NCBI GenBank assembly: GCA_963706295.1
Contig: CAVPLW010000006.1
Coordinates: 337,277 to 401,276, forward strand
Origin: an uncultured delta proteobacterium
GTDB lineage: Bacteria; Desulfobacterota; Desulfobacteria; Desulfobacterales; UBA11574
DNA: 64,000 bases
Reading direction: 5' to 3'
Part shown: positions 512-58,089 of the stretch, piece after piece
How positions within the stretch are numbered: position 1 is the stretch's first letter
Layout: every line of letters begins with the position of its first letter
The notes under the pieces: generated by a model
What the model was told of the DNA's origin: nothing
Seen by the model: the letters and a program-made list of their open reading frames with translations, nothing else
Databases searched by the model: none
Translations under genes and position numbers: made by a program

Positions 512-1744
512 ATGCATAAGCTGCAAGCAACTAATAAGGGTTTTGAATTATTAAGGCAAAGTGTTCCTGTTTTAATGGGGATCTTTATTTTTTTTAATCC
601 TTTTCCACATACTACAGCTGTTAAAGAGGTGTGCTTTTATCTGTCTGTTGTTATTTTTTTTTCCTTAATTATTTTTAAGAAAAACGACTTCTCATTTAAA
701 ACACCCTTTATGCTTTCTTTCGTTCTTTTTGTTTGCTGGGTATTTATAGGTCTTTTTTTTGCTCTCGACAAAAATAACAGTATTCATGATTTTTACTCGC
801 ATTTGCTGAGGTACATTATACTTTATTATATAATAATCAATCTGTTCAGCTCAAAAAGACGTCTTGTTGATCTTTCATGGATTATAATTATTTCTATCGC
901 CATTTTTTCAATTGGAGGAATAATTTTTTTTTATTTTATTTTGGGAAATATATTAACACAAAGGTTTATTGGTTTCACTCAAACTTCAATCAGTACTATC
1001 GCTGTAACAGCCATGTTTGCAATGATTCTTTCCCTGAACAATTTATTTAATGAGACTATTTTTTACCGCAAGATAATTCTCATTGTTTGTTTTTTTTCAG
1101 CACTATTTTCGATAGTTTTATCTCAATCTCTTAGCTCTTTGGCTAGTCTTTGTTTGGTAGTTGTCATAATTTTTTCCAATAAGAAAAAATTCTTGATTGC
1201 TTTGTTAGGGACAATTTTGATTTTTGTTGTTATAACACCTTTTAATAACCGTCTTCTTTCCATCTATACTAATCCATTGATTGCTTTTCGAGTCGGTATA
1301 AATTATCACACCTATGAAATTATAAAAGATTACCCGATAATAGGCATAGGTTTTGGAATGGAAACATACAAAAAAGCTCTTGACTTAGAAACCTATCATA
1401 AAAGAGTTCCAGAGAAATACAGAGAAAATTATATTTATGATGACCCTCATAATATTTTTTTCGATATTGCAGTGAGGACTGGGTTGGTTGGTTTCGCATT
1501 TTTTATTTACATAATATTCGTTTTTATAAAAACATGTTGGGGTTGTATTAAATATGGGAATGACGATTTCATAAAGAACTGGGGCCGGTGCCTTACTGCT
1601 GCCTTTGTTTCTTTTTTAGTAATAGGATTTTTTCACCCGGTTCTCAACCGCGCGCCAGAAACTATTCTTTGTGCTATGTTTTCCATGTTAACGATTGTGT
1701 GGCGTTTAAATAATGAACCAGTCACTAAGTGCTCTAATTCGTAA
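512..1744 (+). CDS. O-antigen ligase / Wzy-like polytopic membrane protein
   Basis: ORF 416..1744 is very hydrophobic with many predicted TM segments. The loop YDDPHNIFFDIAVRTGLVGF resembles the Wzy_C/O-antigen-ligase motif. I chose the ATG at 512 because the upstream part overlaps the preceding gene. Confidence 0.6.
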   Translation: MHKLQATNKGFELLRQSVPVLMGIFIFFNPFPHTTAVKEVCFYLSVVIFFSLIIFKKNDFSFKTPFMLSFVLFVCWVFIGLFFALDKNNSIHDFYSHLLRYIILYYIIINLFSSKRRLVDLSWIIIISIAIFSIGGIIFFYFILGNILTQRFIGFTQTSISTIAVTAMFAMILSLNNLFNETIFYRKIILIVCFFSALFSIVLSQSLSSLASLCLVVVIIFSNKKKFLIALLGTILIFVVITPFNNRLLSIYTNPLIAFRVGINYHTYEIIKDYPIIGIGFGMETYKKALDLETYHKRVPEKYRENYIYDDPHNIFFDIAVRTGLVGFAFFIYIIFVFIKTCWGCIKYGNDDFIKNWGRCLTAAFVSFLVIGFFHPVLNRAPETILCAMFSMLTIVWRLNNEPVTKCSNS

Positions 1745-1795
1745 ATTCGATGACGTATTTTTATCAGTACAACTATCCCGTATAAGCTGAAGTCC

Positions 1796-1931
1796 AAAAG
1801 TTTGAAGTTTGAAGTGCCTAAAGTGAGCTAAAGTTGAGGAACACGCTTTCAGCGCAATCAATTATAAATTAAAATTGATAGAATACCTTAACTTTAGGCA
1901 CTTTAGTTCACTTTAGGCACTTTACACTTTT
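1796..1931. repeat. Word-hairpin element, family A copy 1: arms of tandem GTGCCTAAA / GTGAGCTAAA words around an AT-rich centre
   Basis: The left arm aaaagtttgaagtttgaagtgcctaaagtgagctaaagttgagg is an imperfect reverse complement of the right arm ccttaactttaggcactttagttcactttaggcactttacactttt. A second copy lies at 57794..58023. Confidence 0.8.
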
Positions 1932-2387
1932 GCATAAATAGAATGAATAAACCAAGTTATAAATACGCCACCGTATTTACGAATACATGTAACTAAGGAC
2001 GCAGTATAAAAAACGTTATCACACCTGCATTTCCAATTCTAAACAAAATGATCCGACATTTAGGATCTGCCCTGCTGTTTAGAGCACGCATGTTTCCCTT
2101 CCGACTTTTTTAATACCATTGGCAGGCAGGTTCATTCGTGTTAAAGACACATTAAAGTTTAGTCCCGCCATCTTTTTCCAAGTGCCAATGGGATTGACAA
2201 AATGGAACGGGTGGTTTACGAATATTTAGGAACAGCATGGGCCACCCTTAGGGGACAAATAAACCCACAAAATCTCATGGAACCCTAATGTTTAAATAGA
2301 GTCAAAAGGAATGATCCCTTTTTAAACGTCATTAACTTTTATCAGATCGAAAACTCAACGCACCTTGGGAAAACAGCCGAAACAACA

Positions 2388-41629: not shown

Positions 41630-41758
41630 GGTTCCCTGTTAACGTATTGGTATTTTTATAATTGAGTTGGATTATTAACTCCCGCCTTCGTTGGAGTGAC
41701 GACTATTTCGGCTTTTTACAAAACCATCAAATTTAGTTCACTTCAAAATTTAGTTCAG

Positions 41759-56381: not shown

Positions 56382-57719
56382 ATGACAGATATTCTTGCCT
56401 TAAAAACGAAAATAATCAATTTTATCAGAGTCGACATATGGAGGGTTCGCGCTAAGGATCTTTCCCGAACAAAATACTTTTTTATTAAACAACTCCGAAT
56501 TCTTCTTTTAGCGACTCGCGGATTTGACAAACACAACTGGCCTTTAAATGCATCCGCACTTACGTTTTATTCCATACTATCCATTGTTCCAGTGGTTGCC
56601 ATGGCCTTCGGGATCGCAAAAGGTTTTGGTTATCAGAAGTTTCTTGAAAAACAATTATTGGATAAATTCTCGGGGCAGGAAGAAGTCATGAATCGTGTCG
56701 TTGGATTTGCCTATTCACTGCTTGACAATACAAAAGGTGGTATGATCGCGGGCATCGGTATTGTTTTCCTTTTATGGACAGTCCTCAAATTATTTAGCAA
56801 TATCGAACGGTCGTTCAATGATATCTGGGAAGTCAAAAAGCCTCGCGCGTACGGGAGAAAATTCAGTGACTATCTCTCTATTATGATGATTTCTCCCATA
56901 CTCTTCACCCTGTCCAGCAGTGTTACAGTATTTATAACGACCCAAATTACGGTAATTACCCAAAAAGTAGCACTGTTAGGGATGTTCAGTCCTGTCATAT
57001 TTTTCATGCTGAAATTAACACCGTATTGTTTGATATGGGCACTTTTTATATTTATGTATATCTTAATGCCCAACACCCGGGTTAATTTCAGTTCGGGAAT
57101 GATTGCCGGGGTTATCGCCGGAACAATTTTCCAGATCGTCCAGTGGGCCTATGTCGACTTTCAGGTGGGGATGGCAAGGTATAATGCAATATACGGGAGT
57201 TTCGCTGCATTTCCGTTATTTTTAATATGGATTCAGATGAGTTGGTTGATTGTTCTTTTTGGTGCAGAAATTTCTTTTGCGCATCAATATGTGGATACCT
57301 ATGATTTTGAGCCGGATCGTCATTACATTAGCCCGGCGTTTAAAAAATTACTCTCCCTTCAGATTGCCCATCTCATCATATCTACTTTTTCAAAAGGCCA
57401 AAACCCGTTAACAGCTTTAAAAATATCGCAAATCCTTGAGATCCCGATCCGTCTGGTACAGCAGATACTTGACGAATTGGTTGAAGTTGGCGTTTTGTCC
57501 AATACCGAACTCAAAGAAAACGAAGAATTATCCTTTCAACCCGCCCGCGATATCAATTTTATTACCATAAAATCTATTATCCAAGCCTTTGAACAGAAAG
57601 GCTCGGATAACATCCCTGTTGCACAGACGGCTGAATTAAAGTCTTTATCGGAAGCGTTAAAAGCGCTAAATGATGAAATTGAAAAATCTCCTGCAAACCG
57701 TCTTTTAAAAGATATTTAA
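56382..57719 (+). CDS. YihY/BrkB-family inner-membrane protein with a C-terminal soluble extension
   Basis: NASALTFYSILSIVPVVAMAFGIA and six TM segments match the YihY family. An extra soluble region of about 130 aa forms the C-terminus. Confidence 0.75.
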   Translation: MTDILALKTKIINFIRVDIWRVRAKDLSRTKYFFIKQLRILLLATRGFDKHNWPLNASALTFYSILSIVPVVAMAFGIAKGFGYQKFLEKQLLDKFSGQEEVMNRVVGFAYSLLDNTKGGMIAGIGIVFLLWTVLKLFSNIERSFNDIWEVKKPRAYGRKFSDYLSIMMISPILFTLSSSVTVFITTQITVITQKVALLGMFSPVIFFMLKLTPYCLIWALFIFMYILMPNTRVNFSSGMIAGVIAGTIFQIVQWAYVDFQVGMARYNAIYGSFAAFPLFLIWIQMSWLIVLFGAEISFAHQYVDTYDFEPDRHYISPAFKKLLSLQIAHLIISTFSKGQNPLTALKISQILEIPIRLVQQILDELVEVGVLSNTELKENEELSFQPARDINFITIKSIIQAFEQKGSDNIPVAQTAELKSLSEALKALNDEIEKSPANRLLKDI

Positions 57720-57793
57720 GTTACCAAGGAGTACAAATCCTGCTCGACATTATTTACTGATATGGTGACTTCGATATCAAAACGGAAAAAGTT

Positions 57794-58023
57794 ACAAGTG
57801 CCTAAAGTGAGCTAAAGTGAGCTAAAGCCCGCCCTGGTGCGCATTGCTCATATTTTGACCTGACCTATGCTTCATTACAAAAATAACTTTTTGAGTAAAG
57901 AGTTTTGGTAACCGGTCTGGGCCAGGGTTTAAAGAATGTATAGCCAATTATATTTTAATGACAGCGCGTTAGCGCTACCTTAACTTTAGGCACTTTAAAT
58001 CACTTCAAACTTTAGGCACTTGT
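57794..58023. repeat. Word-hairpin element, family A copy 2
   Basis: The termini are a perfect inverted repeat, acaagtgcctaaagt ... actttaggcacttgt. The arms consist of GTGCCTAAA/GTGAGCTAAA words. The centre is longer than in copy 1 but shares a caattata..ttttaatg segment. Confidence 0.85.
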
Positions 58024-58089
58024 GAATCTGTAGGAATCTGCCTGTCCCGTAGCTTCGGAAGCTGGCATTGGGATGGCCTATTAGCACAT

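Follow-up and report, generated by a model that had tools for sequence, protein, structure and literature searches.

Intervening sequences (IVSs) of 23S rRNA that carry an S23p open reading frame (ORF) are known in Leptospira, Coxiella, Xanthomonas and Brucella, and Ralph and McClelland are said to have described such sequences in 1993. Structures from the S23p/IVS family have been available for ∼20 years and its members are annotated as 'four helix bundle protein' in thousands of genomes; we know of no function for the family and, likewise, of no explanation for the short tandem repeats found in cyanobacteria and xanthomonads. The DGR accessory protein Avd is pentameric and associated with nucleic acid, and very small mobile repeats (SDRs) that nest in other repeats were reportedly found in cyanobacteria by Elhai et al. 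in 2008. In the Coxiella IVS, tandem GACAGAT heptamers of variable copy number precede the S23p ORF (Warrier et al. 2016, PMC4990558); the Xanthomonas S23p protein is reported as a pentamer (PMC4990558), and Avd of Bordetella phage BPP-1 is a homologous four-helix-bundle protein (PMC10053308). Xanthomonas also has 70-75 inverted heptamer pairs, which were read as G-quadruplex formers with no mention of S23p or intervening sequences (Rehm et al. 2015, PMC4692102). Our literature search found no paper linking PF05635 cassettes to tandem-word hairpins.

The window analysed here is a 64,000-nt stretch of a 3.78-Mb Desulfobacterales MAG that is 96% complete. It holds two tandem-word hairpins, copy 1 and copy 2, which we class as MITE-like, ORF-less relatives of 23S rRNA IVS-type elements; no rRNA was found in the 64-kb window. 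The first-pass annotation had drawn both elements too short. Copy 1 spans 1726-1991 (266 nt), its limits set by a 99.2% identical twin at C10:254070-254335 whose flanks are unrelated to those of copy 1. Copy 2 spans 57720-58023 (∼304 nt), abuts the yihY stop codon (57717-57719) and lacks its right outer arm. The perfect TIR ascribed to copy 2 was confirmed, at 15 nt (ACAAGTGCCTAAAGT, 57794-57808, and ACTTTAGGCACTTGT, 58009-58023), whilst the arms of copy 1 are 30 nt long and 90% complementary, with outer arms in addition, and copy 1 in full folds as one hairpin. Both folds are stable, with −72.5 kcal/mol for copy 1 (z = −5.9) and −89.9 kcal/mol for copy 2 (z = −4.5), and neither copy has an ORF beyond chance level. 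The parts of both copies are given in Table 1.

Table 1. Parts of the two hairpins and of the recD fragment, in window positions
Feature	Position	Strand	Remark
Copy 1, left outer arm, family F2 TIR (TAAGTGCTCTAATTCGTAAAT...TTTGAAGTTTGAA)	1726..1813	+	Boundary from twin; common to ∼15 loci
Copy 1, left word arm (GTGCCTAAA GTGAGCTAAA G)	1814..1833	+	Opposite the right word arm
Copy 1, leader remnant of 4HB cassette (GTTGAGGAACACGCTTTCAGCGCAATCAATTATAAAT, GC mini-hairpin)	1834..1869	+	
Copy 1, stop-codon remnant (TAA, 1870-1872) and trailer remnant (AATTGATAGAATACCTTAA)	1870..1891	+	L148 comparison
Copy 1, right word arm (CTTTAGGCAC TTTAGTTCAC TTTAGGCAC)	1892..1920	+	
Copy 1, right outer arm (F2; ...CCGTATTTACGAATACATGTA)	1921..1991	+	Like the outer arm 3' of gene-bearing cassette L148
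Copy 2, outer arm, family F3 (GTTACCAAGGAGTACAAATCCTGCTCGACAT...)	57720..57797	-	Common to 7-11 loci; opposite outer arm missing
Copy 2, word arm (GTGCCTAAA GTGAGCTAAA GTGAGCTAAA G)	57798..57827	.	Opposite the other word arm
Nested element, module C (CCCGCCCTGGTGCG...GGTCTGGGCCAGGG), 100 nt	57828..57927	+	Site CTAAAG^TTTAAAG; no duplication >1 nt
Copy 2, core, leader and trailer remnant, variant B2; sense = minus (GTTAAGGTAGCGCTAACGCGCTGTCATTAAAATATAATTGGCTATACATTCTTTAAA)	57928..57983	-	B2 cores, cassette layout
Copy 2, word arm (CTTTAGGCAC TTTAAATCAC TTCAAA CTTTAGGCAC TTGT)	57984..58023	.	
Degenerate solo arm remnant (TTTAGTTCAC TTCAAA ATTTAGTTCAG), recD fragment	41732..41758	.	One exact family word and usual spacer

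The arms of both copies are made of tandem words of 9-10 nt, as the annotation had noted; the words have the form GTGnnCTAAA and are in far excess of chance across the genome. Depending on the copy, an arm holds two, three or four words, which fits the slippage proposed there. The reported difference in the centres, ∼46 nt against ∼150 nt, needs another reading, since the centre of copy 2 consists of a ∼56-nt homologous core and the nested insertion. The central segment said to be common to the copies is present in both, but the cores lie in opposite orientation and the CAATTATA... motif that they have in common is nearly palindromic in itself. The fragment at recD does contain a word in exact form, along with the TTCAAA spacer and a near-word, but is at best a degenerate solo arm: it has no partner arm and is not among the arrays of the genome-wide word scan. 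An F3 element with both outer arms is present at C7:181707-182079, and for the F3 outer arm the orthologue of copy 2 in the closest relative, G008, is laid out as copy 2 is. The outer arms, the nested insert and the parent gene had all been overlooked.

Genome-wide, the words occur 38-130 times above the expectation of a second-order Markov model: GTGCCTAAAG was observed 129 times (3.4 expected), GTGAGCTAAAG 78 times (0.6 expected) and GTGAACTAAAG 46 times (0.8 expected). Arrays of at least two words are found at ∼110 loci, far more than the two copies first described, with a median repeat block of 282 nt and elements ranging from 150 to 420 nt.

Some PF05635 genes are flanked by the same words as the window copies, as at loci L044 and L070. 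In such cassettes a single gene for a ∼118-aa four-helix-bundle (4HB) protein of PF05635/TIGR02436 (Pfam E = 1.6e-21, TIGR02436 E = 7e-27, PDB 2RLD E = 9e-20) is enclosed by two inverted arms in which CTAAAGTG-type words follow one another, with outer inverted repeats beyond these in some lineages. PF05635/TIGR02436 is the 'S23p / 23S rRNA intervening-sequence protein' family, a relative of Avd. Gene-bearing parents and gene-less hairpins have arms, leader, trailer and outer arms in common. The core matches L129 at 51 of 57 nt up to the ATG of the 4HB gene, and over the 55 nt that follow the 4HB stop codon in L148, copy 1 (1870-1924) is identical at 53. By alignment, the hairpin core is the leader, stop codon and trailer of a PF05635/TIGR02436 cassette; from the window copies the ORF has disappeared, with the start and stop codons as the almost exact limits of the loss. 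The words go with the protein in a graded manner: strict words are present on both sides in 15 of 19 homologues at ≥70% identity and in 7 of 12 at 60-70% identity (with the Bacteroidota variants GTGCCTAGA and GTACTTAGA), and in none of the 11 below 52% identity, where the words are unrelated. Other members have words of their own. The G000 PF05635 genes inspected comprise four intact ones, each with its own inverted tandem words, and a split remnant in which arms are not clearly visible. A 4HB gene on a Planktothrix plasmid (RefSeq) also has inverted tandem words of its own on its flanks, and these are heptamers. No cognate gene, i.e. one of the P0001 subfamily, was found in the present MAG, the best match having 44% identity.

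The cassette words extend well beyond Desulfobacterota. An exact 22-mer was found in at least 117 stretches from Desulfobacterota, Planctomycetota, Bacteroidota, Nitrospirota, Chloroflexota and Aegiribacteria, and in 9 viral contigs. In four further phyla the words are identical, whilst the proteins are 74-79% identical and the ORF DNA ∼75% identical. It is the word arms and not the outer arms that are conserved across phyla. Some of the cross-phylum matches could be mis-binned contigs: a Patescibacteria contig has outer arms like those of Desulfobacterales, and an ANME-2 genome is without the cognate gene.

Comparison of orthologous sites, as the annotation had suggested, revealed presence/absence polymorphism. 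With an empty site defined as ≤30 nt between the flanks, 10 of the 26 loci tested are empty in at least one of four congeners. The yihY-side spacer orthologous to copy 2 is 13 nt in one congener, G006, where the site is empty, and in others this site is occupied by six unrelated hairpin families. For copy 1 no empty site was obtainable in the congeners, where the surrounding polysaccharide locus is not conserved. Some copies are common with congeners and others are lineage-specific, and the window copies behave as DNA-level inverted repeats inserted into intergenic DNA. BLAST-based comparison of filled and empty sites gave T-rich overlaps of 1, 3, 4 or 6 nt at F1 junctions, with no fixed duplication length, unlike classical DDE MITEs; the CTAAG/CTTAG ends of F2 could be a target duplication, or else they could simply belong to the inverted repeat as its tip. 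The description as MITE-like is supported: the elements are multi-copy, ORF-less and bounded by inverted repeats, are missing at congener sites, and have arms, leader and trailer in common with gene-bearing cassettes.

The hairpins themselves have received later insertions. Module C is missing from the otherwise colinear orthologous hairpin of G008 and, on alignment, is a clean insertion relative to it. Its general site is CTAAAG^TTRAGG. The genome has 24 copies, all in a fixed orientation; 23 have an arm word ending ...AAAG on one side, and in 22 of these 23 a recognizable hairpin core lies opposite (19 of TTRAGG type and 3 with a diverged TTTAAAG, TTGTGG or TTATGG start). No gene-bearing module C was found among the loci examined, only short variants of 62-64 nt. 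The 100-nt module C, the 21-nt module D and the 31-nt module E all occur at fixed positions and orientation within other repeats, with no target duplication, and are smaller site-specific mini-elements nested into the hairpins later. They are side features, distinct from the hairpin itself.

Taking these observations together, we consider it likely that the window hairpins derive from a minimal selfish 4HB cassette and are its ORF-less, MITE-like offshoots. With the ORF gone, the loop now consists of leader, TAA and trailer, and the word and outer arms form a long palindrome. The tandem words, which recur at intervals of roughly one helical turn, would be putative recognition sites of the cognate 4HB protein, which would mark or pair both ends while host enzymes cut and join, and gene-less copies could thereby be moved in trans. 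We know of no catalytic motif in a 118-aa helical bundle. As a whole, this mechanism of word recognition by the 4HB protein, host enzymes and movement in trans is a tentative proposal, to which we would give somewhat less than an even chance. Most copies in this genome are probably fossils, because the genome has no cognate gene. However, copy 1 has a 99.2% identical twin despite this lack, so that the cognate protein may be dispensable for recent movement. Transcribed stems of the present elements would form long double-stranded RNA of the type cut by RNase III in rRNA intervening sequences. The co-variation of words and protein could also be plain co-inheritance combined with concerted evolution of tandem repeats. 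A wider generalization seems to us slightly more doubtful than the mechanism: that PF05635 proteins are sequence-specific partners of their own flanking words, and that gene and arms would make up a new class of minimal selfish element that spreads across phyla and in phages and seeds gene-less hairpins, such as STRR-like repeats and rRNA IVSs, with no element-encoded classical transposase.

The strongest rival, which we judge unlikely, holds that the real mobile unit is the hairpin, especially the F1, F2 and F3 outer inverted repeats, moved by some trans-acting transposase or recombinase, with the 4HB gene as a passenger and the words as slippage-prone filler. The outer arms are indeed conserved within each family and delimit the 99.2% twin, which is present without a cognate 4HB gene; the junctions show short T-rich homology, as in some site-preferring recombination, and in other phyla the loops carry unrelated cargo. 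However, when the ORFs within 1.2 kb of the arms were clustered over 117 loci, no recurrent transposase emerged, only housekeeping families. The conservation of word arms rather than outer arms across phyla and the graded tracking of words with protein subfamily also speak against a passenger gene, as do the complete units L129 and L148, in which the 4HB ORF stands alone between the outer arms.

A role for the host fares much worse. Like REP/BIME sequences, the elements might be structured sequences under selection, serving as terminators, mRNA stabilizers, RNase III sites or small RNA genes. Both copies are very stable long hairpins, and the stems of the Coxiella IVS are RNase III substrates (PMC4990558). 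Both window copies do lie 3' of membrane-protein genes, as first reported, but this position is incidental: each of the 52 paired hairpins sits in the gap separating two protein-coding genes, none inside an ORF, and their gene contexts (35/9/8) match the background of intergenic gap types, with no enrichment at convergent or 3' contexts. A terminator or 3'-end function has no support from these contexts. The hairpins show no preferred orientation with respect to the genes beside them (15 versus 12), and folding both strands gave no sense preference (21 versus 20, p = 0.6). Rfam gave zero matches in the window at gathering score; at E ≤ 1 there were none for copy 2 and otherwise only sub-threshold plant miRNA-precursor look-alikes, generic long hairpins, on both strands. 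The suggestion of a small structured RNA is not supported by these results and an RNA gene was rejected. The emptiness of 10 of 26 loci in relatives, and the state of the copy 2 site, vacant in one congener and taken up by six unrelated hairpin families in others, likewise make a beneficial role very improbable. We regard the elements as DNA-level entities without evident host role.

Least credible of all, and close to dismissed, is the idea of REP/REPIN elements moved by RAYT (a Y1 HUH transposase) on single-stranded DNA hairpins: the genome has five Y1_Tnp (PF01797) copies (four intact, one degraded and split into two matches), and module C, with its fixed orientation, fixed short neighbour sequence and lack of duplication, resembles IS200/IS605-type elements in these respects, but the two Y1 genes whose flanks were read have their own repeats, unrelated to the hairpins, no GTAG/CGTC-tagged palindrome of 20-40 nt is present, the elements are 10 times REP length, and the same words occur in phyla without an evident common RAYT. 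The REP-like label and the RAYT link were dropped accordingly.

The reading of the hairpins as derivatives of a 4HB cassette connects the S23p/IVS family with the unexplained short tandem repeats: the hairpin repeats are the remainder once the gene is lost from its cassette, and words and protein change together, whilst the words stay identical across phyla in which the coding DNA is ∼75% identical. It provides a rule for annotation, by which one can assign to cassette families both intergenic tandem-word hairpins and some spurious 'CRISPR arrays', and it accounts for a sizeable share of the fast-changing intergenic DNA of Desulfobacterales and other sediment bacteria.

Bacterial MITEs (Correia/NEMIS, RUP, Nezha, Chunjie) are similar in being small and ORF-less, with TIRs, many intergenic copies, insertion polymorphism and ends common with a gene-bearing parent; they differ in that the parent here has no recognizable transposase, its only ORF being that of the 4HB protein, which is not known to act as one, that no fixed-length TSD was found and that the arms consist of tandem words. 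The STRRs of heterocystous cyanobacteria and the GGGAATC pairs of Xanthomonas are also intergenic short-word arrays with convergent plus/minus-strand pairs, but their repeat unit is shorter, 7 nt against 9-10 nt, and quadruplexes are impossible for the present, A/T-rich family. The nested modules C, D and E recall the cyanobacterial SDRs in lying at fixed position and orientation with no target duplication, though sequences and phylum differ. DGRs with Avd differ in that the present cassettes have neither a reverse transcriptase nor a template or variable repeat nearby, and the word arms have no counterpart in DGRs. Compared with the 23S rRNA IVSs, the elements described here lie in ordinary intergenic DNA and not in rRNA helices 25 or 45, number ∼110 gene-less copies per genome, use 9-10-nt words as both arms and have outer inverted repeats. 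The likeness is that the same protein family is encoded in the loop of a long stem formed by inverted repeats, with tandem short repeats by the ORF, an arrangement true of the parent cassettes and retained, without the ORF, by the window copies, and the rRNA IVS is likewise seen as a horizontally transferred selfish element whose ORF decays and of which ORF-less forms exist.

The family-A hairpins derive from a gene cassette, and their core corresponds to that cassette minus its ORF. In the loci L044 and L070, family-A words flank an ORF of ∼118 aa (P0001), which matches PF05635 (E = 1.6e-21), TIGR02436 'four helix bundle protein' (E = 7e-27) and PDB 2RLD (E = 9e-20). In gene-bearing cassettes, the hairpin 'leader' corresponds to the stretch that runs from the left arm to the ATG, and the 'trailer' to the stretch that begins with the stop codon and reaches the right arm. 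Copy 1 is identical to another gene-bearing locus, L129, at 51/57 positions up to the ATG, and to a further one, L148, at 53/55 positions from the stop codon on, with a looser match continuing through an F2-like outer arm. Thus, the hairpin core consists of leader, TAA and trailer, and this layout assigns a sense strand to each copy (table below). No gene of the P0001 subfamily was found in this genome, the best match being 44% identical.

As the first-pass annotation described, words of 9-10 nt repeated in tandem make up the arms of copies 1 and 2, their reverse complements lying in the opposite arm, and the perfect 15-nt terminal inverted repeat of copy 2 was confirmed (57794-57808 versus 58009-58023). 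The conserved unit is the 8-mer CTAAAGTG, with 1-2 variable bases between units (C, AG, AT or AA); some arrays have an alternative period of 16-17 nt, from a TTTGAA or TTTAAA spacer. Word counts were taken over the whole assembly (3.78 Mb in 22 contigs, 44% G+C, with the window at C6:337277-401276) and expected counts from a second-order Markov model of it. The words GTGCCTAAAG, GTGAGCTAAAG and GTGAACTAAAG occur 129, 78 and 46 times where 3.4, 0.6 and 0.8 are expected, so their abundance is not due to chance. The genome-wide count proposed earlier gives not just two copies but ∼110 loci with arrays of at least two words (29 per Mb), split into 52 strict paired hairpins and 59 solo arrays.

The word arms were thus real, but the limits first given to the elements were not, as self-BLAST finds repeats running past the arms. 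The boundaries of copy 1 are fixed by a twin at C10:254070-254335, which is 99.2% identical and has unrelated flanks. Copy 1 belongs to subfamily F2, with ∼15 members and outer inverted repeats of 70-90 nt ending CTAAG/CTTAG. Of its two outer arms, copy 2 retains a single one, and the outer arms of F1 differ from those of both F2 and F3. All three subfamilies have in common the word arms and a ∼55-nt core that occurs in three variants, reading in one orientation GTTRNGG, a GC mini-hairpin (GGAGTCGCTTCGCTCC, AGCGCTAACGCGCT or CGCGCTTTCAGCGCG), an A/T box (TTTTATATAATTG-like) and NCAGAATWCCTTAAC.

Positions of family-A copies, nested modules and related genes (window coordinates unless a contig is named)
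Feature	Position	Sense strand	Description
Copy 1	1726-1991	+	266 nt, limits set by twin
Copy 2	from 57720, directly after yihY stop codon	−	Subfamily F3
Module C in copy 2	57828-57927		100 nt, CCCGCCCTGGTGCG...GGTCTGGGCCAGGG; absent from G008 orthologue
Module D			21-nt hairpin; 8 copies, 6 at AACTT^TAGGCAC; nested like module C
Module E	e.g. C2:195748, C8:101389, C2:202406		31 nt, CTCCGGCTCGTAGAGCCTACGCCTCGGAGAG; 19 copies
PF05635 gene	C7:189999-190313		Outside window; arms of GGTGATGGGTTAT...
PF05635 gene	C6:442645-442959		Outside window; arms of CGTTTAGAGCGTT...
PF05635 gene	C14:303768-304085		Outside window; arms of GTATTTAGT...
PF05635 gene	C8:86865-87170		Outside window; arms of TAATAATTAAC...
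PF05635 remnant	C2:104001-104245		Fifth, split; no clear arms
Y1-type gene	C19:23256-24221		Outside window; IS200/Y1-type transposase-like, ∼320 aa
Y1-type gene	C22:23328-24332		Outside window; IS200/Y1-type transposase-like, ∼320 aa
L212	NZ_LR882964.1:12909-14047		Planktothrix agardhii plasmid; RefSeq 'four helix bundle protein'
L204	L204:1466-1600		Complete gene-less family-A hairpin

Smaller elements are nested in the hairpins at fixed sites. Loop sizes are bimodal genome-wide (54-60 nt and 154-159 nt), and the longer centre first noted in copy 2 is real, though not as one centre, since 100 nt of it is a separate element, module C. In G008, the closest relative (flank identity 96%), the orthologous hairpin is present but does not contain module C, and the alignment has a clean 100-nt gap with a duplication of at most 1 nt. 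Of 24 copies in the genome, 23 have an arm word ...AAAG on one side, and 22 of these have a recognisable hairpin core on the other, starting TTRAGG in 19 and with a diverged TTTAAAG, TTGTGG or TTATGG in three, copy 2 included. The two other copies lie one at an arm followed by different sequence and one outside any hairpin. Orientation to the arm/core target is constant; by inspection, 8 hosts, all five of F2 among them, have module C in the leader half and 14 have it in the trailer half. Module E follows a GG at its nesting sites, which lie in module C, in the mini-hairpin of the core and in further hairpin families that have AATAATGGA words.

The hairpins are dispersed and polymorphic between congeners, and the MITE-like reading first put forward holds. 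For 26 hairpin loci the flanks were joined as one query and compared with four congeners, a site being empty at ≤30 nt between flanks; 10 of the 26 were empty in at least one congener, as the suggested comparison of orthologous sites was meant to reveal. Some insertions are ancestral, since other loci, such as C2:57436, are occupied in congeners too. The convergent yihY / GAF-ANTAR spacer (57720-58089) is an insertion hot spot: it measures 373 nt here versus 13 nt in the congener G006, and six unrelated tandem-word hairpins occupy it in a further eight congeners (words e.g. CACCAAG, ACAGAT, CCTCCAAC). F1 junctions compared with empty sites have a T-rich overlap (TTTAT-like) of 1, 3, 4 or 6 nt, and no target-site duplication of fixed length. 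None of the 52 paired hairpins is inside an ORF; 35 lie between tandem, 9 between convergent and 8 between divergent genes, against 67%, 15% and 18% of background intergenic gaps, and where the neighbours are in tandem, the sense strand runs with them in 15 and against them in 12. Folding of both strands gave 21 cases with the sense and 20 with the antisense strand more stable (Wilcoxon p = 0.6), a symmetry expected of DNA inverted repeats; both copies form very stable hairpins (copy 1 −72.5 kcal/mol, z = −5.9; copy 2 −89.9 kcal/mol, z = −4.5). No Rfam family was found for the hairpins. Together, these results speak against a function for the host.

The words and the 4HB protein co-vary. The homologue search covered this genome together with 201 from the order and 12 from other phyla, and strict family-A words (GTG-N2-3-TAAA) were scored on both sides of the gene. 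At ≥70% protein identity to P0001, 15/19 genes have such words on both sides; in three of the four exceptions both arms carry ATGCCTAAA, a variant differing by one base, and in the fourth (L131) the 5′ words lie under the ORF start used in scoring. The fraction is 7/12 at 60-70% identity, where Bacteroidota members have GTGCCTAGA, GTGCCTTGA or GTACTTAGA, and 0/11 below 52%, where the words are wholly different. Each of the four intact PF05635 genes inspected in this genome lies between inverted tandem arrays of its own, different word. On the Planktothrix plasmid, the 4HB gene lies between heptamer arrays (CCCCAAT, CGTAAAT, CCCAAAT) in the inverted layout of the cassettes, with additional gene-less hairpins on both sides. 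Its neighbours are a DISARM drmD gene on one side and an MmeI-type restriction gene on the other.

A tentative inference is that the 4HB protein may recognise its own flanking words. The words, one per helical turn, would be its recognition sites; the protein would mark both ends and host enzymes would act, so that copies without a gene would rely on one encoded at another site in the genome. A Xanthomonas member of this family is a pentameric toroid (cited in PMC4990558), and the DGR protein Avd is a homologue (PMC10053308). Against this mechanism stand the 99.2% identical twin in a genome without a cognate gene, the lack of a fixed target-site duplication, and that of a catalytic candidate in the 4HB protein. 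In the main rival explanation, some other enzyme would use the outer inverted repeats as the functional ends and the 4HB gene would be a passenger; no recurrently adjacent transposase was found near the arms in 117 loci. Co-inheritance and concerted evolution of tandem repeats alone could also produce the co-variation of words and protein. A Y1/RAYT source was rejected, as the two Y1/RAYT-like genes whose flanks were read carry other repeats. Both genes lie between direct-plus-inverted repeats of ∼30 nt, particular to each gene and unrelated to family A, and have a putative C-terminal DnaA-type HTH tail.

The cassette has spread across phyla, although all genomes involved are MAGs and contamination may affect some cross-phylum bins. 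The exact 22-mer AAGTGCCTAAAGTGANCTAAAG is found in at least 117 stretches of other species' genomes (∼0.3 expected by chance), with mutually unrelated loop contents; hosts among the matches listed are Desulfobacterota, Planctomycetota, Bacteroidota, Chloroflexota, Nitrospirota, Aegiribacteria, one ANME-2 bin and one Patescibacteria bin. Genes 74-79% identical to P0001, with the same three word types, occur in Nitrospirota, Sedimentisphaerales, Phycisphaerae and Aegiribacteria. Their ORF DNA is only ∼75% identical across these phyla, with differences throughout, whereas the words are unchanged. The Patescibacteria (L041) and ANME-2 (L056) loci are hairpins with Desulfobacterales-type cores, to which L041 adds an outer arm resembling that of F2; a cognate gene is absent from both genomes, and these contigs may be mis-binned rather than from true hosts. 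An Aegiribacteria MAG (L174) has a P0001-type gene broken across two reading frames (pieces 78% and 66% identical). It lies between unusually long arms of at least eight family-A words, and looks like a decaying parent copy. The L204 hairpin lies between genes of a 56-kb contig classed as viral (IMGVR_UViG_3300037587_000914), a possible vehicle for cross-phylum spread.

Beyond the first-pass annotation, the analysis adds the boundaries of the elements, their nested insert and their parent gene, and no paper among those searched derives dispersed hairpin repeats from 4HB cassettes. Family-A hairpins work like MITEs, but a target-site duplication and a transposase-encoding parent are absent or not clear-cut. 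Their architecture is that of the Xanthomonas convergent heptamer pairs and cyanobacterial STRR (PMC4692102, which makes no mention of 'S23' or 'intervening'). In a large CRISPR-Cas screen, '23S rRNA IVP' is one of the domains that a figure legend names (PMC10910872), an association that could arise from word arms mistaken for arrays. The closest described system is the 23S rRNA intervening sequence (IVS) with its S23p ORF. In Coxiella, the IVS is termed a selfish element with a decaying ORF, preceded by a variable number of tandem GACAGAT heptamers, at the first of which RNase III cuts (PMC4990558). Protein family, stem-loop layout and tandem words are common to both systems, whereas the family-A elements lie outside rRNA, are massively amplified in gene-less form and have added outer arms. 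We classify family A as an IVS/S23p-type selfish cassette together with its gene-less derivatives.
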